Below, one piece after another: positions 6,137 to 59,212 of a stretch of DNA of 59,212 bases (its first letter is position 1; each line of letters starts with the position of its first letter). The notes under the pieces are model-generated. The model did not search any database. It was not told where the DNA came from and saw nothing but the letters and a program-made list of their open reading frames with translations. This stretch comes from Candidatus Nomurabacteria bacterium (GTDB taxonomy: Bacteria; Patescibacteriota; Minisyncoccia; Phycocordibacterales; UBA9973): NCBI GenBank assembly GCA_016186435.1, contig JACPLQ010000001.1:1-59212 (forward strand), given 5' to 3'. The position numbers and the translations under genes are program-made.

Positions 6137-6446
6137 ATTTGGAGACGTTGTTTTGGTTATTTTTTATCAAACAGATGGCAGTCGAAAACAACGTCCAGCA
6201 TTAGTCGTTCTGGATATCGGAGACGACGATATCACCTTAGCGCCAATCACAACTACTGAAAGAAAAAGCAAGGGAGATTATAAAATAAAAAATTGGGAAC
6301 AATCGGGTTTATTGCTTAGTTCCTGGGTAAGATTGGCGAAAATCTCATGTTTGAGTAAAAATGATATTCATAAAAAACTTGGAACTTTTAGTCGGGAAGA
6401 CAAGAAAGCAGTAGTTTCTGTCTGGCGCAAATTATATAAATTTTGA
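6123..6446 (+). CDS. PemK/MazF family type II toxin
   Basis: KFGDVVLVIFYQTDGSRKQRPALVVLD...LAPITTT matches the MazF/PemK N-terminal SH3-like signature. Confidence 0.75.
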   Translation: MTKYKFGDVVLVIFYQTDGSRKQRPALVVLDIGDDDITLAPITTTERKSKGDYKIKNWEQSGLLLSSWVRLAKISCLSKNDIHKKLGTFSREDKKAVVSVWRKLYKF

Positions 6447-6456
6447 TTCATAAAAT

Positions 6457-6582: not shown

Positions 6583-7200
6583 ATGAACCCGTTCGAGAGG
6601 TTGTTCAAACTCTGGGCCATGATCTGTAAGATGATCATGGACGGCGTGCGCGACGCCGAAGAGGTCGCGAACATTCTGCAGGGCATCGTGGACGGCCCTG
6701 CGAATGTGGCGAAGAAGGTGGTCCGCCGCCTGCGTCTGACCCGCATGCTGTTCGGCGGTGTCGTACTCTCGGCCACGACGGGCCGAGAAGTCGAAACGGC
6801 GAAAGCCGTTTTCGACGGATACTGCGACCCCGCTTTTCTCGAGGGGGCCGAGAATGAGCAGCCGGAAGGCGAGTGCGCGCTCGACGTCGAGGAAATTATG
6901 GTAGATGGAAAGTATCGTCAGATCTTCGGCGGGTTCGGCCGCGACCTCGACGAGCTCGCGATGAGCCGGTCGCGAATCACGGCATTCTGCCGTGACCATC
7001 GCGACAAGCTCCGGGGCGGCGGCTATGGGACTTTCCTCCTCTTCAAGAGGCAGAAGTTCTTCTTCGTTGCCGGCGTGTACGTCGACGACGGCGGCCAGCT
7101 CAACGTGAGCGTCGACCCGCTCTCGCACGACGACGTCTGGTACGCCGAGTTTCAGCTACGCATCGTGGTTCCGCAGTCCCTTGGATCCCCGAGCGCGTAG
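6583..7200 (+). CDS. DGR variable (target) protein, GC-rich, with no signal peptide
   Basis: The C-terminal 39 codons are the VR copy of the downstream TR. GC content is far above its flanks. Confidence 0.85.
   Translation: MNPFERLFKLWAMICKMIMDGVRDAEEVANILQGIVDGPANVAKKVVRRLRLTRMLFGGVVLSATTGREVETAKAVFDGYCDPAFLEGAENEQPEGECALDVEEIMVDGKYRQIFGGFGRDLDELAMSRSRITAFCRDHRDKLRGGGYGTFLLFKRQKFFFVAGVYVDDGGQLNVSVDPLSHDDVWYAEFQLRIVVPQSLGSPSA
7060..7176 (+). repeat. DGR variable region (VR)
   Basis: 117 nt align with 7542-7658. There are 15 mismatches, all at template adenines. Confidence 0.9.
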
Positions 7201-7541: not shown

Positions 7542-7658
7542 TTCTTCGTTGCCAACGTGAACGTCGACGACAACGGCCAGCTCAACGTGAACGTCAACCC
7601 GCTCTCGAACGACAACGTCTGGAACGCCAAGTATCAGCAACGCATCGTGGTTCCGAAA
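7542..7658 (+). repeat. DGR template repeat (TR), non-coding
   Basis: Adenine-rich copy of VR. In the VR frame it reads ANVNVDDNGQLNVNVNPLSNDNVWNAKYQQRIVVPK (AAC-rich). The track ORF 7517-7759 across it is in another frame and is spurious. Confidence 0.9.
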
Positions 7659-42302: not shown

Positions 42303-42334
42303 TACAATAAATTACGAATTAAGAATTACGAATT

Positions 42335-43018
42335 ATGAATTCAAATATTATAGATTGGAAAAAATACTTGGTTGTATTTTTAATAACAGTGGGCCTTTTC
42401 TTTACTGCAAGCTCCGTGAGCAATTATTTTGGAAATAAAAAAATTGATCAGCTGAAAAATATTCAGGATAAAATAGCTATTGATATCCTATCTTCTGAAA
42501 CGCAGTTCTCGCTTTTATCGGAGCTTTCCTGCAAGAATATTCCTGATTCTGTCTTTTCTCGTGAGCTTGGCGAACTGGGAAATAAATTGGAGTGGAGCCA
42601 GGATAACTTGGGCGATACAGCAGAAGTATCTTATTTAAAAAAATATTACTCGTTATTACAAATCAAAGATTATCTTTTGGCGAAAAAGATTTCTGAGCGT
42701 TGTAAAGTAAAATCCGCTTTTATACTTTATTTCTACACAACTGCCGAAAATTGCGCTCTCTGCAGAGAGGAAAGCCTGGTGCTTTCAAAACTCCGCGCTG
42801 AATACCCGGAGCTACGGGTATATTCTTTTGATTACAGCACCGATCTTTCGGCGGTAAAAGCTATGATTCAAATTTATAAAATAAAAGATACCGAGCTTCC
42901 GGCCTTGGTAATAGACGATGATGCGCTCACCGGATTCCACGACATAGAGGAACTGTCGGCTCTAGTGGAAGAGTCTTTTAAATTGAAAGTGGCAGAACCT
43001 GTAAAAGCCGATAGCTAA
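42335..43018 (+). CDS. hypothetical membrane-anchored protein with a CxxC (CALC) thioredoxin-like segment
   Basis: TM at the N-terminus. FYTTAENCALCREE. Confidence 0.45.
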   Translation: MNSNIIDWKKYLVVFLITVGLFFTASSVSNYFGNKKIDQLKNIQDKIAIDILSSETQFSLLSELSCKNIPDSVFSRELGELGNKLEWSQDNLGDTAEVSYLKKYYSLLQIKDYLLAKKISERCKVKSAFILYFYTTAENCALCREESLVLSKLRAEYPELRVYSFDYSTDLSAVKAMIQIYKIKDTELPALVIDDDALTGFHDIEELSALVEESFKLKVAEPVKADS

Positions 43019-44285: not shown

Positions 44286-45074
44286 TTATATGGAATAACG
44301 TTTTACCTCTTTTATCTTAGCTCCCGAGGAATCCAAGAGCTTGCCTACTGTCATATTACCATCTTTTATGAAAGGCTGATCCGAAAGAGTTTTTTCTTTG
44401 AAATACGCCGCCATCTTGCCGTCAAGCATCTTTTTCTTTATTTCCTCCGGCTTGTTTATGCCTGCCATTTCTTTTTCAAATACTTCCCGCATGGTTTTTT
44501 TTGCATCCTCGCTTACTTCATTTGCGTAAATATATTCCGGCTTCATGGCAGCTATGTGCATGGCAATATCGCGGGCGAGTTCCGGATTTCCATCTTTCAA
44601 AGACACTATAACTCCTATTTTATTATTGTGCAGGTAGCTTTCTAAAACATCTCCAGTAACCTCATAAACCTCGCCAAGCTGGATGTTTTCTCCTGTTTTT
44701 TGAATTACCGGATCTATCATGTCTTTTGCGCCAGCTTTCATTTTTTCGATCCCATTATTAAATGCTTCTTCAGTGAGCTTGTTTAATAGATTAGTGAAAT
44801 CTTCATTTCTTGCTACGAAATCAGTCTCGCACAAGAGAGCTACTAGAACAGCCTTTTTGCCATCAGATTTGATGGCTACTCTGCCGTCTTTTACTTCTCG
44901 GTCGCCTTTTTTAAGCGCTATATCGGAACTGGTTTTCTTGAGTATAGCGAGAGCTTTTTTCATGTCGCCTTCGGCTTCTTCCAGCGCGCGCTTGCATTGC
45001 ATCACGGAAATGCCAGTGCTATCTCTTAATTCTTTAATCTGTTTGGTTGTTATTTGTGTTGACATAAGTTTCAA
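44286..45074 (-). CDS. tsf: elongation factor Ts
   Basis: UBA-like N-terminus IKELRDSTGISVMQCKRALEEAEGDMKKALAILKK, in rpsB-tsf synteny. Confidence 0.93.
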   Translation of the reverse strand: MKLMSTQITTKQIKELRDSTGISVMQCKRALEEAEGDMKKALAILKKTSSDIALKKGDREVKDGRVAIKSDGKKAVLVALLCETDFVARNEDFTNLLNKLTEEAFNNGIEKMKAGAKDMIDPVIQKTGENIQLGEVYEVTGDVLESYLHNNKIGVIVSLKDGNPELARDIAMHIAAMKPEYIYANEVSEDAKKTMREVFEKEMAGINKPEEIKKKMLDGKMAAYFKEKTLSDQPFIKDGNMTVGKLLDSSGAKIKEVKRYSI

Positions 45075-45086
45075 TTATCAATTCAA

Positions 45087-45118
45087 AATTACGAATTTCA
45101 AATTATTAATTCGTAATT
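45087..45118. repeat. AT-rich hairpin aattacgaatt-10 nt-aattcgtaatt in the rpsB-tsf spacer
   Basis: 11-bp arms. The same 12-mer aattacgaatta occurs twice in tandem at 42310-42335. Confidence 0.7.
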
Positions 45119-45126
45119 GTTAATTC

Positions 45127-45852
45127 TTAATTTTTGCCTGCTTGTCCCTCCTTGTAAGCATGAGCTACGGCCGCTGCGAAGAATTTAATTGAAGGTATGC
45201 CGGAGTCGTTTGCTATGACAGGGAAGTCAATTCCTTTTATGTTTGAATCAGAATTTACGAGAGCAATGACTGGAGTTCCGGACTTTCGGGCTTCAGTAGC
45301 CGCGATATGTTCGCTTCGGGCATCTACGATAAAGAGCGCATCCGGAGTTTTTTTTAATCCAAGGAGGCCGGTATAATATCGAGCTAATTTTTCCATCTTC
45401 TTGGCCATAACCACTCTTTCTTTTTTGGTGTATTTGTCCAGTCCGCCGGAAGCAGTGTCTTTTTGATAATTCTCTAATTCCATAATTCTTTTCTTTATTT
45501 CTGTGAAGTTTGAAAGAGTGCCGCCGATCCACCGCTCCATTACGTAAGGCATAGACAGAGATTCTGCGATATTTTTAGTTACAACCTTCGCTTCCGGCTT
45601 TGTGCCGACAAAGAGCACAGTCTTGTTCTGAGCCCCTAGGTTTTTTATAAAAAGAACGGCTTCATCTAAAAGCTTGCTTGTTTTTTCAAGATTTATTATG
45701 TCTCCTTTGTTTTTGGTAGCATAAATATATTTAGAAACAGAAGGATGCCTTCGTGTTTTTGAGTAGCCATACTGGGCCCCGGCTTGGAACATTGCCTCTA
45801 TAATTTTGTCGTTATCTGTCTTATTTACGGTTGCTGTTTTAACTTTTTGCAT
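45127..45852 (-). CDS. rpsB: 30S ribosomal protein S2
   Basis: MFQAGAQYGYSKTRRHPS..., VLFVGTK, IPVIALVNSDSN. Confidence 0.95.
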   Translation of the reverse strand: MQKVKTATVNKTDNDKIIEAMFQAGAQYGYSKTRRHPSVSKYIYATKNKGDIINLEKTSKLLDEAVLFIKNLGAQNKTVLFVGTKPEAKVVTKNIAESLSMPYVMERWIGGTLSNFTEIKKRIMELENYQKDTASGGLDKYTKKERVVMAKKMEKLARYYTGLLGLKKTPDALFIVDARSEHIAATEARKSGTPVIALVNSDSNIKGIDFPVIANDSGIPSIKFFAAAVAHAYKEGQAGKN

Positions 45853-55589: not shown

Positions 55590-55624
55590 TGCGCCTAGCG
55601 TAGTGCGTTTATTAAACCATATCC

Positions 55625-55702
55625 GAACCTATTTTCAAAACAAATAAAGCGGACGAATTTTTGCGAAACAATGCGGACTTTTCTTTTGGGAATGGGGAAT
55701 TT
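55625..55702. repeat. left copy (78 nt) of the inverted repeat element flanking the 3-kb segment
   Basis: Its reverse complement aligns with 58720-58750 (about 29/31) and 58844-58890 (about 43/47). Confidence 0.85.
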
Positions 55703-55754
55703 TAAACCTAAAATTTTATTGCAATAAGACTAAAATAATTCTATTATAGAGAAT

Positions 55755-56051
55755 ATGAAACATGTGGGTAATAAAATTTTAGAATACAAAAAAGAGTTGG
55801 TGGAAACTTTTGCTAAAATTTTCGGAGATAAAAAGTTGATGGCCGAATTTTTGACAGACATTCTAACGCCGACAGAATTTGAGGCTCTAGCTTTAAGGTG
55901 GCAGATAGTTAAAAAACTTAAGAAAGGAGAAACCCATAGATCCATAGCGGAGGATTTGGGTCTTGGTATAAGCACAGTAACTCGAGGTTCTCGTGAACTT
56001 CGTAATAAAAATGGTGGTTTCCATTTAATGTTAAAGAAAATCGGTAAATAG
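55755..56051 (+). CDS. TrpR/YerC/YecD family helix-turn-helix protein
   Basis: LTPTEFEALALRWQIVKKLKKGETHRSIAEDLGLGISTVTRGSRELR. Confidence 0.8.
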   Translation: MKHVGNKILEYKKELVETFAKIFGDKKLMAEFLTDILTPTEFEALALRWQIVKKLKKGETHRSIAEDLGLGISTVTRGSRELRNKNGGFHLMLKKIGK

Positions 56052-56081
56052 ATAGTTAAAAAGTTATTCACAGTGCTACTC

Positions 56082-56109
56082 TTGCATTATATTTTGTATC
56101 TGCTACTAT
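56082..56109 (+). promoter_or_regulatory. promoter-like TTGCAT, 16 nt, TGcTACTAT
   Basis: Read directly from the sequence. Confidence 0.4.
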
Positions 56110-56153
56110 GTACTAGTACACGAATACAAGAGTATTTATGTATTGGATACTAT

Positions 56154-56234
56154 ATGAAAAATAATCTAAAAATGAATGTTTCAATGAAATCTTGGTGGAG
56201 CGCAAACACATATGTTTTTGCGTCTATCTTTTGA
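56154..56234 (+). CDS. candidate 26-codon leader peptide with tandem Trp codons
   Basis: Hand translation gives MKNNLKMNVSMKSWWSANTYVFASIF-stop. TGG TGG lies at 56093-56098 in a roughly 30 percent GC spacer. Confidence 0.4.
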   Translation: MKNNLKMNVSMKSWWSANTYVFASIF

Positions 56235-56272
56235 TTTCTCTTTACTGTCTAAACTAAAAAAGGAATCCAAAA

Positions 56273-56297
56273 ATCGGCGCAAGAGCGTCGATTTTTG
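56273..56297 (+). terminator. rho-independent terminator / candidate attenuator upstream of the ATP-grasp-like ORF
   Basis: atcggcgc-aaga-gcgtcgat followed by ttttt. Confidence 0.65.
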
Positions 56298-56352
56298 TTC
56301 TTTGTCATAAACAGTTATTTAACAAAACCCAGTCCTTAGGAGAGACTACAAA

Positions 56353-57636
56353 ATGAAAAATGAAGTAACCGTTAGTGCCCTTAACAGGGCACTTGAAATC
56401 CGAGACTACTGCAACAAGTTGCAGCTCGGATACGATCGGGCACCTGATTGTCATTTCTATGTCGGACCCGATTCGTTCAGACTCAGCGACAATCAGCTTG
56501 ATATTTTTGTCAATCAAGGCGAGCTGTTTCGTACATGGTTCGAGATTACACTCGAATTGTGTACTCGGGCTTACCGAGACGATAGCATGAGTTGGCTTGC
56601 TGATTTGATTGAGGGTGAATCCCCAGATCATGTCAGACAAGTTCACAGACAAGTCCATCTCTCGGGACTCCTCAACATTCCATTATTCGCTCGACCTGAT
56701 ATGTCGGCGATCGGTGCGAGTGTCGAGGTTCAAACACCTGGATCCGGATGGGGTTATCAGACCGCTATTCACAACATGGTCGGTAAATCCCGTTGGACAG
56801 GACCAATCAATGGACTCAAGCAAGCTGTAAAGGCTATGACTGGATCACACAGTACGCCATCGGCGTATGTGCTCTACAACGATCCGTTTTTCCCTGAAGT
56901 CGAGTATTTTTGTCGGCTTTGTGGAGAAGCAGGGATGCAACTTCAAATGCACTTCAAAACATTGCCGTCAGCCTCTGAGGTTAAGTTTGTTCGGCGGCCA
57001 CCTCTCGAAGACCTGCTGTCATACGAAGGTGGCTCGGAACTGGTTCAGTCTTGGTTAGACGGACAGTTGGTACTTGAACCCGGACCTAGTCTGCTGTTCG
57101 ATCAAAAGTTGGCGATTCTGTTTCCGTTTCATCCGCGTCTCAGGGAATTTTATCCTGACTCTGTCAGGCAACTTTTCCCCGAGACTTACTTGGTGGCAAG
57201 AGATAGTCGGCTAGTGTTTAACGGTAAGCCACTGAGTTTGGATGAACTGTCTAGTCTCTCGGGTTCAAAGAGACAGTTTATCCTAAAGTATGCAGGTGCT
57301 AAAAAAGGTCTGCGTGCTGGTGGCAAAGCGGTGTACAACCTTTCTGACTGCAATCATCAGAAGGTTCGGGAACTGCTCGTGATGGCTCTCGAGGACTGGG
57401 AAAAACATCGGTCGCCGTGGCTGATTCAGAAACGGGTACAGCAAAAATACCCAATCGTTTTTCTGGATCATGTTGCGGAGGAGATTCGAGAGGCGCAGTA
57501 CTATGCGCTTTTCCGACCGATGTACAGCTTTCTGCCAGACGAACCATCAGCGATCGTAGCTATGACAGCTCTCTTTCGGAAAGACTGGAAAGTGCATGGC
57601 TCAAGTGATGCCGTCACGCTGCCAGTTGAAGTTTAG
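56353..57636 (+). CDS. hypothetical protein, tentatively a glutathionylspermidine-synthase-like / circularly permuted ATP-grasp amidoligase
   Basis: LFARPDM..VEVQTPGSGWGY (pre-ATP-grasp-like), LLFDQKLAILFPFHPRLREFYP, and ILKYAGAKKGLRAGGKAV (compare VxKPxxGREG). Good SD aggaga. It is visibly higher in GC and uses different codons than its neighbours. Confidence 0.45.
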   Translation: MKNEVTVSALNRALEIRDYCNKLQLGYDRAPDCHFYVGPDSFRLSDNQLDIFVNQGELFRTWFEITLELCTRAYRDDSMSWLADLIEGESPDHVRQVHRQVHLSGLLNIPLFARPDMSAIGASVEVQTPGSGWGYQTAIHNMVGKSRWTGPINGLKQAVKAMTGSHSTPSAYVLYNDPFFPEVEYFCRLCGEAGMQLQMHFKTLPSASEVKFVRRPPLEDLLSYEGGSELVQSWLDGQLVLEPGPSLLFDQKLAILFPFHPRLREFYPDSVRQLFPETYLVARDSRLVFNGKPLSLDELSSLSGSKRQFILKYAGAKKGLRAGGKAVYNLSDCNHQKVRELLVMALEDWEKHRSPWLIQKRVQQKYPIVFLDHVAEEIREAQYYALFRPMYSFLPDEPSAIVAMTALFRKDWKVHGSSDAVTLPVEV

Positions 57637-57642
57637 TTCTTT

Positions 57643-57717
57643 GCGGGAGTAGCTTAATTCTAAAGCTAGGAGACTCCAAATCTTCTGATGAAGGTTAAAG
57701 TCCTTCCTCCCGTGCCA
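57643..57717 (+). tRNA. non-canonical tRNA-Trp(CCA) with encoded CCA
   Basis: Acceptor GCGGGAG/CTCCCGT, anticodon arm GGAGA-CTCCAAA-TCTTC, T arm GAAGG-TTAAAGT-CCTTC (no C56), D loop AATTCTA (no G18/G19). Confidence 0.6.
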
Positions 57718-57725
57718 AGTTGTTC

Positions 57726-57762
57726 AATGAGCATGTAGACTAGTTCTGCGTGCTCATTTTTT
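57726..57762 (+). terminator. rho-independent terminator closing the ATP-grasp-tRNA unit
   Basis: aatgagcatg ... cgtgctcatt followed by tttt. Confidence 0.75.
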
Positions 57763-57813
57763 CTTCCTCACCTCGATTCGTGTTATATTATAAATAATAA
57801 TTGTAAAAAATTT

Positions 57814-58704
57814 ATGAAAGTAAAACAAATTAAAATTGATAAGAAAAATAAAATACCAGTTTATTTATTCGGCACAGAACCTAAGATTTTACTAATGGCG
57901 GGAGTTCATGGAGATGAAAAAACTGGTGTGGTAATTTTGAAAAAAATAATTAAGCAATTACAAAATAGTAAAAAATCCTACCCTGTCGCAATTATTCCTT
58001 GTGTGAATATGAGAGCATATAGAGATAGCTCAAGAATCAATCCGAAAGATAAAATTGACTTCAATCGTATTTTCCCTGTAATTAAAATTAAAAGTGAGTC
58101 TTACCAGATAGGCAAAGCAATTCAAGATTTTGCGGAAAAATTTACAATGGTCATTGATATTCATGTCTTCACAGGACAACACACATTAATGTGCGGAGTT
58201 GATTTAAATATATCTAAAGGTAAGATACAAAAAAATATTAAAGATATAATGTCACAAATAGGCATGGAAGCTATATGCAGAATCGATCATGCTAGCGAAC
58301 CAAAAAAAGACGGTTCTCTTTGTGCTTACTTGCAGCATAAAAAAGTATTGGCATTCGGCATAGAATTGCCACCCTCTGAAGTATTAACTAAAAATAATTT
58401 CGATACGATAAAAAATAATTTAATTGACTTAATAAAAGGTTTTCAAAAAAGAACCAAGATGCAAAAATTAAAATCATATATCAGACTCCCTGTTCTCAGT
58501 GAATATACTGGATTTTTTTCACCGAATAAAATTCCCGGACTTGAAGTTAAAAAGTACGATACTATCGGAAATATAACAGAAAAAAATCAACAAAAGCACA
58601 ATATAAACTCTCCGTTTAATGGCAGACTTATTTCGGTGAGTTATAAAAAATCTGTGAAAAATGGTGATAAACTATTTGTAATAGGAAAAAAGGTAAAAGG
58701 TTAA
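57814..58704 (+). CDS. succinylglutamate desuccinylase/aspartoacylase (AstE/AspA, M14-like) zinc deacylase with a C-terminal hybrid-barrel domain
   Basis: AGVHGDEKTG, NMRAYRDSSRINPKDKIDFNRIFP, DIHVF. The C-terminal SPFNGRLISVSYKKSVKNGDKLFVIG is lipoyl/hybrid-barrel-like. Confidence 0.7.
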   Translation: MKVKQIKIDKKNKIPVYLFGTEPKILLMAGVHGDEKTGVVILKKIIKQLQNSKKSYPVAIIPCVNMRAYRDSSRINPKDKIDFNRIFPVIKIKSESYQIGKAIQDFAEKFTMVIDIHVFTGQHTLMCGVDLNISKGKIQKNIKDIMSQIGMEAICRIDHASEPKKDGSLCAYLQHKKVLAFGIELPPSEVLTKNNFDTIKNNLIDLIKGFQKRTKMQKLKSYIRLPVLSEYTGFFSPNKIPGLEVKKYDTIGNITEKNQQKHNINSPFNGRLISVSYKKSVKNGDKLFVIGKKVKG

Positions 58705-58719
58705 ACTATTATTTTTAAT

Positions 58720-58890
58720 AAATTCCCCATTCCCAAAAGAAAGGTCCGCGCGGATTCCCTCCCAGACCCTGCCTCCGCGCGGGGAATCCGCATTCCCGCC
58801 AAAACAAATTAGCCGAGTTTTTGCGAATCCTTTTCCCAGAAAATAGTTTCGCAAAAACTCGTCCGCTTTATTTGTTTTGAAAATAGGTTC
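58720..58890. repeat. right copy (171 nt) of the inverted repeat element, with an internal insertion of about 90 nt
   Basis: See 55625-55702. The extra segment contains gcggattcc/ggaatccgc and cgagtttttgcgaa/ttcgcaaaaactcg hairpins. Confidence 0.85.
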
Positions 58891-58915
58891 TAACTTGGTA
58901 CAATAAAGACACAAA

Positions 58916-58949
58916 GTTAAGAAATCTCAAGCAGATGAGATTTCTTAAC
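58916..58949. terminator. 14-bp hairpin acting as a bidirectional terminator
   Basis: gttaagaaatctca-agcaga-tgagatttcttaac, flanked by T/A runs. Confidence 0.7.
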
Positions 58950-58953
58950 TTTG

Positions 58954-59024
58954 TGGACTCACCGGGAATCGGACCCGGGACTCGTCATTGCGAACGACGC
59001 GTAATGCCACTTTACTATGAGCCC
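58954..59024 (-). tRNA. tRNA-Ala(CGC) with G3:U70; T loop TCCGATT (C55); no encoded CCA
   Basis: Acceptor GGGCTCA/TGAGTCC, D arm GTAA-AGTGGCA-TTAC, anticodon arm CGTCG-TTCGCAA-TGACG, T arm CCGGG-TCCGATT-CCCGG. Confidence 0.65.
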
Positions 59025-59047
59025 CTCACATGCGCGCATGTGAGGGG
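59022..59047. repeat. perfect 26-nt palindrome cccctcacatgcgcgcatgtgagggg abutting the tRNA-Ala(CGC) 5' end
   Basis: It is flanked by the direct repeat ctatgagccc (59015-59024 and 59048-59057). Confidence 0.85.
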
Positions 59048-59171
59048 CTATGAGCCCGCCACATGGCAACAGTTAGTATATTTTATTTTAAGGAGAAAGG
59101 CAAAACAAAAAACGGCCAGATTTTAGTTGCAATGTAGTTAAAATAATATAGAATATCTGAGTTCAACACTC

Positions 59172-59212
59172 GGGCCCGTAGCTTAGTTGGTAGAGCGCCT
59201 CATTTGCAATGA
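59172..59212 (+). tRNA. tRNA-Ala(UGC), 5' part only (truncated by the window end)
   Basis: GGGCCCG-TA-GCTT-AGTTGGTA-GAGC-G-CCTCA-TTTGCAA-TGA... Confidence 0.8.

Follow-up and report, generated by a model that had tools for sequence, protein, structure and literature searches.

Near the end of a 59,212-nucleotide stretch of DNA from Candidatus Nomurabacteria bacterium (contig JACPLQ010000001.1, positions 1 to 59,212, here called the window), a segment bounded by inverted repeats (positions 55596-58919) carries a small gene module that we judge, with somewhat better than even confidence, to be a tryptophan-starvation operon whose products include a ligase and a hydrolase acting as a pair on conjugates of aromatic amino acids. 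The original prediction, made from the letters alone, had placed six elements between the two repeats, namely a gene for a TrpR-like regulator, a short open reading frame (ORF) with tandem Trp codons, an intrinsic terminator, a 427-aa ORF reminiscent of ATP-grasp ligases, a tRNA with anticodon CCA and a gene for an AstE/AspA-type deacylase, and had proposed that they form a tryptophan-responsive modification system. All six elements, together with the repeats that flank them, were recovered where that prediction had put them.

The first gene of the island (55755-56051; all genes, promoter-like sites and RNA elements of the island lie on the forward strand) encodes a protein of 98 aa that is assigned to the Trp repressor family by its match to Pfam PF01371 (E = 4.8e-19, 68.6 bits, cut-off 27). 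Its score against the TIGR01321 equivalog model, 50.6 bits, lies under the cut-off of 67.25, and membership in the family is not meant to imply orthology. The protein aligns with E. coli TrpR structures over residues 30-83 (E = 8e-8), and the recognition helix is near-identical, reading GISTVTRGS in the window and GIATITRGS in E. coli. A consensus scan places a promoter-like site for trpR, a pattern match only, at 55719-55747 (TTGCAA-17-TATTAT, 9/12) and a second one for the leader and ligase transcript at 56067-56095 (TTCACA-17-TATTTT, also 9/12), the latter being kept in the related loci L002 and L009. Fourteen nucleotides downstream of the -10 element of this second site and upstream of the leader lies the core GTACTAGTAC (56110-56119) of a palindrome, TACTATGTACTAGTACAC (56104-56121), that resembles a TrpR operator by sequence match, and the core occurs a single time in the window. 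The same core is found upstream of the module in L002, L009, L010, L018, L021, L008 and L022, a recurrence that spans five other lineages; in L008 it accompanies a divergently transcribed trpR, and in L022 it occurs twice, before trpR and before the ligase gene. L001 has a perfect 26-nt palindrome upstream of the module with two CTAG motifs 8 bp apart, a spacing that we take to agree with that of the E. coli trp operator.

Between this operator-like site and the ligase gene lies a leader region with the features of a trp-type attenuator as far as these can be read from sequence: tandem Trp codons, a terminator ahead of the structural gene and a mutually exclusive antiterminator. The leader peptide ORF, MKNNLKMNVSMKSWWSANTYVFASIF, has 26 codons (56154-56234) with UGG-UGG at 56193-56198. 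Segments 1 and 2 (56186-56238) form a hairpin with the Trp codons in its 5' arm, and segments 3 and 4 (56268-56304) form a terminator of 13 pairs (56268-56297) followed by a T-run, the U-tract of the transcript. Segment 2 (56217-56233) can alternatively pair with 56268-56282, the 5' arm of the terminator. RNAfold gives the full leader -41.1 kcal/mol (z -7.05), with the Trp-codon hairpin and the terminator both formed, and the 2:3 pairing with segments 1 and 4 deleted -15.1 kcal/mol (z -3.3). One position of the terminator stem varies among relatives with the pairing preserved as G-U, A-U or G-C. The leader of L001, whose ligase is 65% identical, reads MKQIQCWWGTKAIARVPLC and that of L022 reads MNLFKTYWWQLILSPYR; these and the leader of the window have only the WW in common, the remaining peptide being unrelated, and for L001 the same three-way 1:2/2:3/3:4 logic is predicted from an unrelated sequence. 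Thus, the short ORF is better explained as a regulatory leader than as the precursor of a peptide that is made on the ribosome and modified after translation (RiPP).

A leader device is present at every related locus whose upstream sequence is readable, and in all of these except L025 and L028 a sensor of aromatic amino acids can be recognized. Ahead of the module in eight loci (L024, L040, L041, L011, L027, L029, L031 and L033) there is a T-box with a UGG specifier. In L024 it stands in place of TrpR and the leader, scoring 100.7 bits against Rfam RF00230 (gathering score 93) with the specifier GAA-UGG-A, and the T-box of L040 reads like it. The T-boxes of L011, L027, L029, L031, L033 and L041 have short stems, UGG in the specifier bulge and the box GGUGGYACCGCG; the seven besides L024 score 33-58 bits or are recognized by the GGUGGYACCGCG motif alone, again with UGG in the bulge. 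The Rfam search found no T-box in the window itself. In five loci from clades with about 30% ligase identity, an aromatic-rich leader peptide and a terminator precede the gene order deacylase-ligase: MKTIQTNSYYYFFFTS in L014 (YYYFFF), MQLRQTHFYCFDWYFSS in L012 (FYCFDWYF), MNNTQAQMYCYHWFVTS in L013 (YCYHWF), ...FHYCWHFYFSS... in L003 and the Tyr-rich ...SSYYYAYLSQ... in L004. Leaders were called on WW or five aromatic residues, a criterion passed by 56 of 3276 background small ORFs; those of L013 and L004, with four aromatics in eight residues, narrowly miss this criterion and were recognized by eye. L025 (300-470) and L028 (4790-4945) have, upstream of the module, a conserved structured leader with a long-range stem, GCAAATACGCCA/TGGCGTATTTGC, and with a segment TTGGAGGG that might pair in competition with the terminator GAGCCCTCCA...TGGAGGGCTC. 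This leader matched no family in Rfam and could represent a new type of sensor that responds to the same signal.

The companion genes of these loci point to aromatic amino acid supply and use as well. L027 and L039 share the order T-box with a UGG specifier, SerK-like ParB_N protein, TrpB2, two LMW-phosphatase-like (LMWPc) genes, deacylase, ligase and tRNA-Trp, the stretch from T-box to phosphatase occupying 861-3837 in L027 and 5885-8861 in L039. The ParB_N protein (127 aa) matches SerK (NF053625, E = 3e-19) and also SbnI, and the TrpB2 assignment comes from 6hul_B (E = 6e-143) and NF009057 (743 bits). TrpB2 depends on O-phosphoserine, and this set of genes looks like a route from indole and O-phosphoserine to tryptophan. 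A pyridoxal phosphate enzyme in L041 was considered as a further TrpB2 and ruled out at 27% identity over 65 aa, so the TrpB2 link comes from L027 and L039 only. L041 otherwise has the order T-box, 62-aa zinc-ribbon ORF, deacylase, ligase, tRNA-Trp, terminator and an ORF beginning MAKEIILSGIQPTGKLHIGNYFGALK, which we take to be a tryptophanyl-tRNA synthetase (TrpRS) from its HIGH-region signature, read by eye. The idea that the ligase replaces TrpRS was downgraded accordingly: with what appears to be a canonical TrpRS encoded right after the module, such a replacement is unlikely. In L004 the Tyr-rich leader is followed by deacylase, ligase, tyrosyl-tRNA synthetase (TyrRS) and a prephenate dehydratase (PDT) gene, among Phe/Tyr genes and with a tRNA-Tyr nearby.

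Taken over the homologous modules, the TrpR operators, Trp-Trp attenuators and UGG T-boxes strongly support the responsiveness to tryptophan that the original prediction had suggested, as judged from these predicted elements. A scope restricted to tryptophan did not hold, since the leaders of deeper branches are Tyr/Phe/Trp-rich or Tyr-rich and TyrRS is among the neighbours there; the module would belong to aromatic amino acid starvation regulons generally, with the branch of the window putatively specific for Trp.

The structural gene behind the attenuator (56353-57636, with AGGAG 11 nt upstream) encodes a 427-aa protein of an unnamed family. It had been noted earlier as reminiscent of amidoligases of the glutathionylspermidine synthetase or circularly permuted ATP-grasp type, in a setting compared with RimK. 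Against Pfam and NCBIfam, including GSH_synth_ATP, GSP_synth, CP_ATPgrasp_1/2 and RimK, it has no match even at E <= 1; profiles of 29 and of 76 ligase sequences found no match among PDB sequences in a hidden Markov model search, and hhalign against E. coli YgiC gave a probability of 0.2. Of the 76 distant relatives, a single one reaches CP_ATPgrasp_1, at 3e-4. Among 5.8 billion proteins, a word-indexed search returned 34 relatives of the ligase, none with a Pfam domain, and a second such search using a wide alignment added almost nothing; an exhaustive profile search brought 453 cluster representatives at E <= 1e-3 (clustering at 50% identity). With all routes through sequence blank, it was the predicted fold alone that placed the ligase. 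The AlphaFold2 model, built with 29 homologues, has a pLDDT of 92.8 and a pTM of 0.92, and all 33 Foldseek matches at E <= 1e-3 are circularly permuted ATP-grasp ligases, led by 2hgs (E = 5.8e-11, TM 0.64) and followed by Cp1B (9cjn), YgiC (7uk8) and GspS (2io7). The set comprises human, yeast, plant and trypanosome glutathione synthetases, soybean homoglutathione synthetase, GSS-like effectors of nematodes, fungal Cp1B, and YgiC and GspS of E. coli. The model thus assigns the protein to the circularly permuted ATP-grasp ligases of the glutathione synthetase, GspS and YgiC type, as the earlier fold call had it. The comparison with RimK did not hold, and by sequence the protein is a member of no Pfam ATP-grasp family.

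Invariant features of the ligase include R114, D116, E125, Q127 and the motif PGSGWGY. R114, D116 and E125 do not vary in 76 relatives at 18-37% identity, and together with Q127 they give the pattern R-x-D...E-x-Q, with Gln replacing Asn. In Cp1B, which couples a dicarboxylic acid to an L-amino acid to give an N-acyl-L-amino acid, R139, D141, E163 and N165 are required for activity (PMC12568646), and the ligase pattern corresponds to these residues, the correspondence being taken from the paper and not from a residue-level structural alignment. Some distant relatives among P0167, P0174, P0179 and P0125 are fused at the N-terminus to a domain that resembles either HMGL (whole protein about 810 aa) or radical SAM, and other members of this set share a common unannotated N-terminal extension of about 170 aa; neither the fusions nor the extension gave a usable clue to function.

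The ligase gene does not travel alone. In all 22 distinct loci with both flanks readable it adjoins an AstE/AspA-type deacylase gene, down to ligase identities of 27-31% and in two gene orders, ligase-(tRNA)-deacylase and deacylase-ligase, so that of the partners that the original prediction expected to recur among homologues the deacylase is the constant one. In the window this gene (57814-58704) encodes a COG3608-like zinc amidohydrolase of 296 aa matching PF24827 (AstE_AspA_cat; E = 6.5e-23, 81.7 bits, cut-off 25). The motifs HGDE (residues 32-35), NR, IDIH (H117) and IELP are as expected for an active zinc hydrolase. The nearest PDB sequences are 3cdx, 2qj8, REP34, DoeB and MpaA, the zinc motifs aligning with 3cdx and 2qj8, and these nearest solved relatives of COG3608 type include both deacylases and true carboxypeptidases. 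The NCBIfam equivalog models for AstE, ASPA, DoeB and MpaA all scored far under their cut-offs, the best being DoeB at 43.6 bits against 402.7, and the deacylase is therefore not an orthologue of any of these named enzymes.

Six nucleotides past the stop codon of the ligase begins a tRNA-Trp (57643-57717) with anticodon CCA, G73 and an encoded CCA end, followed by an intrinsic terminator (57726-57765) with a 14-pair stem (57726-57758) and a T-run that is kept in relatives. ARAGORN detects it as tRNA-Trp(CCA) and the Rfam covariance model as a tRNA (52 bits, gathering score 29), which bears out the earlier identification. The earlier description of this tRNA as odd applies to the window, where the elbow is atypical, with the D-loop AAUUCUA lacking G18G19 and the T-loop UUAAAGU having A56; it is a lineage-specific trait and did not carry over to a clade with about 50% ligase identity, in which the linked tRNA is canonical, with GG in the D-loop and a UUCRAAU T-loop. 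Throughout the clade of the window the D-loop is AAUUCUA and the T-loop UUAAAGU or UUAAAAU, and in L001 they are AAUAAUGAUA and UUUGAGU. In both, the G19-C56 elbow pair has been lost in a coordinated manner, and a U19-A56 pair could replace it. Compensatory changes occur at 16 of the 22 cloverleaf pairs among 12 ligase-linked tRNAs.

In 11 distinct loci, with ligase identities of 46-100% and both gene orders represented, a tRNA-Trp begins 5-13 nt past the stop codon of the ligase. It is absent from 8 of the 21 informative loci (L008, L025, L028, L003, L012, L013, L014 and L004, the last five forming two distant clades), and in two the cloverleaf is atypical. As a recurring partner, the tRNA foreseen by the original prediction is thus frequent and not obligatory: a tightly placed, dispensable companion, which in some lineages looks like an extra, specialized or decaying copy. 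The ligase gene of L040 is overlapped in its final three codons by a perfect cloverleaf resembling tRNA-Trp (6206-6281, forward strand). This cloverleaf combines a CUCCAAA loop, G73 and CCA with a D-loop of 5 nt and the T-loop ACCAAAA; neither ARAGORN nor Rfam detected it, and 160 nt separate it from a canonical tRNA-Trp (63 bits) on the opposite strand (6377-6450). The tRNA-like sequence of L024 (2132-2208), a locus whose ligase is 81% identical, has eight nucleotides in its anticodon loop, CCACCAAU, and a 3' end that reads TCA where CCA would be expected; it may be a copy in decay or else a tRNA of an unusual kind. A tRNA-Ala(CGC) of the window outside the island (58953-59024, reverse strand) has C at T-loop position 55 (loop UCCGAUU), a position at which U is near-universal, and atypical elbows may be a trait of the whole genome and not just of the tRNA of the island.

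To account for these observations, we propose the following scheme. With tryptophan plentiful, Trp-bound TrpR would occupy GTACTAGTAC, a short way downstream of the -10 element, and on any transcript that is started the ribosome would read the 26-codon leader to its stop, cover segment 2 and let the transcript end at the hairpin at 56268-56297. With charged tRNA-Trp scarce, the ribosome would stall at UGG-UGG and mask segment 1, and segment 2 would then pair with the 5' arm of the terminator and allow read-through into the ligase gene and tRNA-Trp. The ligase would activate a carboxylate as an acyl-phosphate at the expense of ATP and couple it to an amine, and the zinc enzyme would hydrolyse an N-acyl-amino-acid bond or a C-terminal peptide bond; in both cases the class of enzyme is supported by the comparisons above and the substrate is proposed. 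The proposal of an aromatic conjugate follows from the occurrence of the pair under Trp, Tyr or Phe/Tyr/Trp sensors and near TrpB2, the SerK-like protein, TrpRS and TyrRS, and that of an amide between a carboxylate and the aromatic amino acid follows from the chemistry of the relatives, because bonds of this kind are made by Cp1B and glutathione synthetase and cleaved by enzymes of the AstE/AspA and M14 groups. By this analogy, our best guess is that the pair acts on N-acyl or peptidyl aromatic amino acids, with a conjugate X-CO-NH-Trp in the window, and that its role would be to capture the scarce amino acid, to buffer it or to set it free for charging, in the way that glutathione acts as a reserve of cysteine. 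The tRNA-Trp would be co-regulated translational capacity and not a substrate; the eight loci without it support this, since they indicate that the enzymes need no adjacent tRNA.

Several observations sit uneasily with this proposal. Producing a ligase together with a hydrolase of the very bond that it forms looks futile unless the two act on different bonds or at different times, and the eight Trp residues of the ligase (1.9%) are odd for a protein made under tryptophan starvation. The deacylase gene of the window lies behind the strong terminator of the tRNA, so that control by tryptophan may not be common to it. The close spacing of ligase and tRNA, kept over the whole identity range and in both orders, hints that the tRNA is more than a passenger, and the same hint comes from L040, where the atypical tRNA-Trp overlaps the ligase stop with a canonical one close by.

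It is these hints that give weight to the main rival of the conjugate proposal, a tRNA-dependent ligase reaction like that of PEARLs (peptide aminoacyl-tRNA ligases). Here TrpRS would charge the co-encoded tRNA-Trp, the ligase would phosphorylate a carboxylate, be it that of a small molecule, of a peptide or of the C-terminus of a protein, the amine of Trp-tRNA would attack it, and the deacylase would later remove or recycle the added residue. PEARLs reportedly have an ATP-grasp-like site, phosphorylate a C-terminal carboxylate and use aminoacyl-tRNAs including Trp-tRNA (PMC11962472), and both the reported site and the use of Trp-tRNA speak for the comparison. So do the position of the tRNA directly behind the ligase in 11 loci, whichever side the deacylase lies on, the retention by the linked tRNAs of the window, L001 and L040 of the acceptor stem, G73 and the CUCCAAA anticodon loop with loss of the canonical elbow, and the presence in L040 of a canonical tRNA-Trp besides the atypical one. 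We nevertheless regard this reaction as unlikely. Among the eight loci without a tRNA are relatives at 49-65% identity (L008, L025 and L028), the tRNA is fully canonical in the clade at about 50% identity, where it may be a housekeeping gene, no LanB-like domain was found (the ligase has no Pfam match of any kind), the isoelectric point of the ligase, about 6.3, shows no obvious basic RNA-binding character, and induction by tryptophan starvation runs against what a consumer of Trp-tRNA would call for. A compact ATP-grasp enzyme, working by itself, that takes Trp-tRNA as amine donor or acts directly on tRNA-Trp, with the elbow-less tRNA as a dedicated non-ribosomal tRNA, is a variant that we hold to be marginally less probable again. 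More doubtful than either is the tailing of proteins, after the manner of tubulin tyrosine ligase (TTL) and its carboxypeptidases or of RimK and ribosomal protein S6, in which an aromatic residue would be added to the C-terminus of a protein, perhaps one with a role in translation, and removed by the M14-like enzyme, retuning the cell in shortage. Enzymes of the glutathione synthetase type do extend a C-terminal carboxylate, the relatives of COG3608 include the true carboxypeptidases REP34 and MpaA, the module adjoins aminoacyl-tRNA synthetase and tRNA genes, and small basic ORFs lie between T-box and module in L040 and L041; but no conserved target gene accompanies the pair, the small ORFs lack conservation from locus to locus, and the fold matches are to small-molecule ligases and not to RimK or TTL.

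Two further explanations can be largely excluded. That the genes are functionally unrelated neighbours on a mobile or recombined island, with the tRNA-Trp as an integration landmark, might be argued from the inverted repeats that bound the island, its mosaic base composition, the assembly of an identical island as separate 2-3-kb contigs, the L022 core between different flanking genes and the serine recombinase beside the tRNA in L027 and L039. We consider it very improbable, as chance would have to produce ligase and deacylase side by side in both orders, at identities as low as 27%, in 22 of 22 loci, as well as three unrelated kinds of aromatic sensor recurring upstream, and the island lacks a transposase and an integrase as well as any match to phages, plasmids or defence systems. 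The least probable of all is that the 26-aa ORF is a RiPP precursor modified by the ATP-grasp enzyme and trimmed by the peptidase. The succession of a short ORF, a terminator and an ATP-grasp enzyme does recall graspetide clusters, but only the WW codons are kept between lineages, a T-box takes the place of the ORF in other loci, the leader RNA has textbook alternative pairings, and the fold is of the glutathione synthetase type and not that of graspetide ligases; on the pattern of conservation we ruled this reading out.

The island itself is bounded by a left arm (55596-55702), kept in L002, L009, L010, L018 and L021, and a right arm (58720-58919). The outer parts pair over 77 nt at 83% identity (55596-55672 with 58843-58919) and the inner parts over 30 nt at 97% (55673-55702 with 58720-58749); both motifs are confined to these two arms within the window, and shuffled sequences gave no matches. 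A 93-nt segment (58750-58842) is inserted in the right arm of the window and missing from its left copy, and it is found in both arms of the relative L021. The inverted repeats are kept in relatives 87-100% identical at the DNA level. An identical ligase protein was seen only on contigs of 2-3 kb from short-read assemblies that end inside the repeats, which is how a repeat-bounded segment assembles and holds no information on inversion. The neighbours of the island are ordinary chromosomal genes (S2, EF-Ts, a class II aminoacyl-tRNA synthetase, MreB/C, TGT and glnA), and within it the G+C content is mosaic, 0.45-0.50 in the ligase ORF against about 0.31 in trpR and the deacylase gene. In L022 the same core of ligase, tRNA and deacylase (87% nucleotide identity) is associated with a TrpR that is 52% identical, has no repeats and lies between flanks that differ from those of the window, with an RNHCP gene on one side and rpsL-rpsG on the other. 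The module therefore moves or recombines between genomes. We found no transposase, integrase or other recombinase inside the island of the window. PADLOC gave no match of substance and tblastn against phages and plasmids no match at all, and an origin in a defence system, phage or plasmid was dropped on these results. In L027 (6288-7856) and L039 (11312-12880), both on the reverse strand, the tRNA-Trp at the end of the module is directly adjoined by a gene for a large serine recombinase (domains Resolvase, Recombinase and Zn_ribbon_recom), which suggests that this tRNA serves as an integration site there.

Elsewhere in the window, a second pair of inverted repeats (42309-42370 and 45072-45133, 62 nt, 73%) made of AATTACGAATT-like units encloses a 2.7-kb segment with a tRNA-Thr and several genes, a layout that resembles that of the island studied here. 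A 114-nt direct repeat is present at 7060-7173 and 7542-7655, the copies being 89% identical and 482 nt apart. A perfect 20-bp hairpin (58910-58955) abuts the tRNA-Ala gene, a perfect 30-nt palindrome, AGCCCCTCACATGCG/CGCATGTGAGGGGCT (59020-59049), overlaps its other end, and another tRNA gene starts at 59172 and continues beyond the end of the window.

Much of what we describe has precedents. The trp operon of E. coli is controlled by a TrpR operator and the Trp-Trp attenuator trpL, and Chlamydia has a trpR-leader-trpBA operon. The window shares with E. coli the TrpR recognition helix, the CTAG-centred palindromic operator at the promoter, the tandem UGG leader and the exclusive 1:2/2:3/3:4 hairpins, and with Chlamydia the position of trpR directly upstream; it differs from both in what is controlled: in place of trpEDCBA or trpBA there is an ATP-grasp ligase with a tRNA-Trp, to which a zinc deacylase may be added. 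In Firmicutes, T-boxes regulate trpS, the trp operon and Trp transporters; relatives of the module likewise lie behind T-boxes with a UGG specifier, whose bulge matches the G73 discriminator, but the cargo is the ligase-deacylase pair, and some loci encode the sensed tRNA species in the same operon. With glutathione synthetase, Cp1B, YgiC/YjfC and GspS the ligase shares the fold (TM 0.52-0.65, Foldseek E from 1e-7 to 6e-11), the R-x-D...E-x-N/Q phosphoryl-transfer motif and a Gly/Lys-rich loop after a conserved Lys. It differs from them in having no membership at the sequence level, and its genomic link to aromatic sensors and a tRNA is new. Iyer and colleagues reportedly predicted in 2009, by comparative genomics, that RimK-type amidoligases pair with COG3608 deacylases. 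Such pairs likewise combine an ATP-grasp ligase with an AstE/AspA-like hydrolase of M14 fold, with the differences that the ligase of the window is of the glutathione synthetase type and that neither amino-acid-specific regulation nor a tRNA is known to belong to that description. PEARLs such as the Trp-adding BhaB_C resemble the module in ATP-grasp-like activation of a carboxylate, in the possible use of Trp-tRNA and in having a peptidase partner; they differ in that the module has no LanB-like domain or scaffold-peptide gene and is regulated by starvation, and in that its use of Trp-tRNA is hypothetical. In the literature searched (for ATP-grasp/tRNA/deacylase combinations, TrpR in Patescibacteria, T-boxes in the candidate phyla radiation (CPR), and TrpB2 with a serine kinase) we found no description of such a module. 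The regulatory devices and both enzyme superfamilies are already known; the ligase family, its fixed pairing with a COG3608-like deacylase, its control by three kinds of Trp/Tyr/Phe sensor and the tRNA-Trp built into the operon appear to be undescribed in that literature.

The CPR bacteria, or Patescibacteria, are ultra-small symbionts, for the most part uncultured and unable to make most amino acids, and we know of no account of how they cope with a shortage of the costliest ones. The two-enzyme module sits alone apart from the tRNA, or with indole-salvage genes or the cognate synthetase, and this points to an undescribed enzymatic step in the supply or use of aromatic amino acids. It gives a physiological context to a family of unannotated proteins that comprises 453 clusters, and it offers a concrete case of a tRNA gene within an operon that senses the charging of that same tRNA. 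If the tRNA should prove to be a substrate, the ligase would represent a new class of tRNA-dependent ligase, and if it is moreover a dedicated tRNA, the module would be to primary metabolism, under the control of starvation, what the PEARL enzymes are to natural-product biosynthesis.

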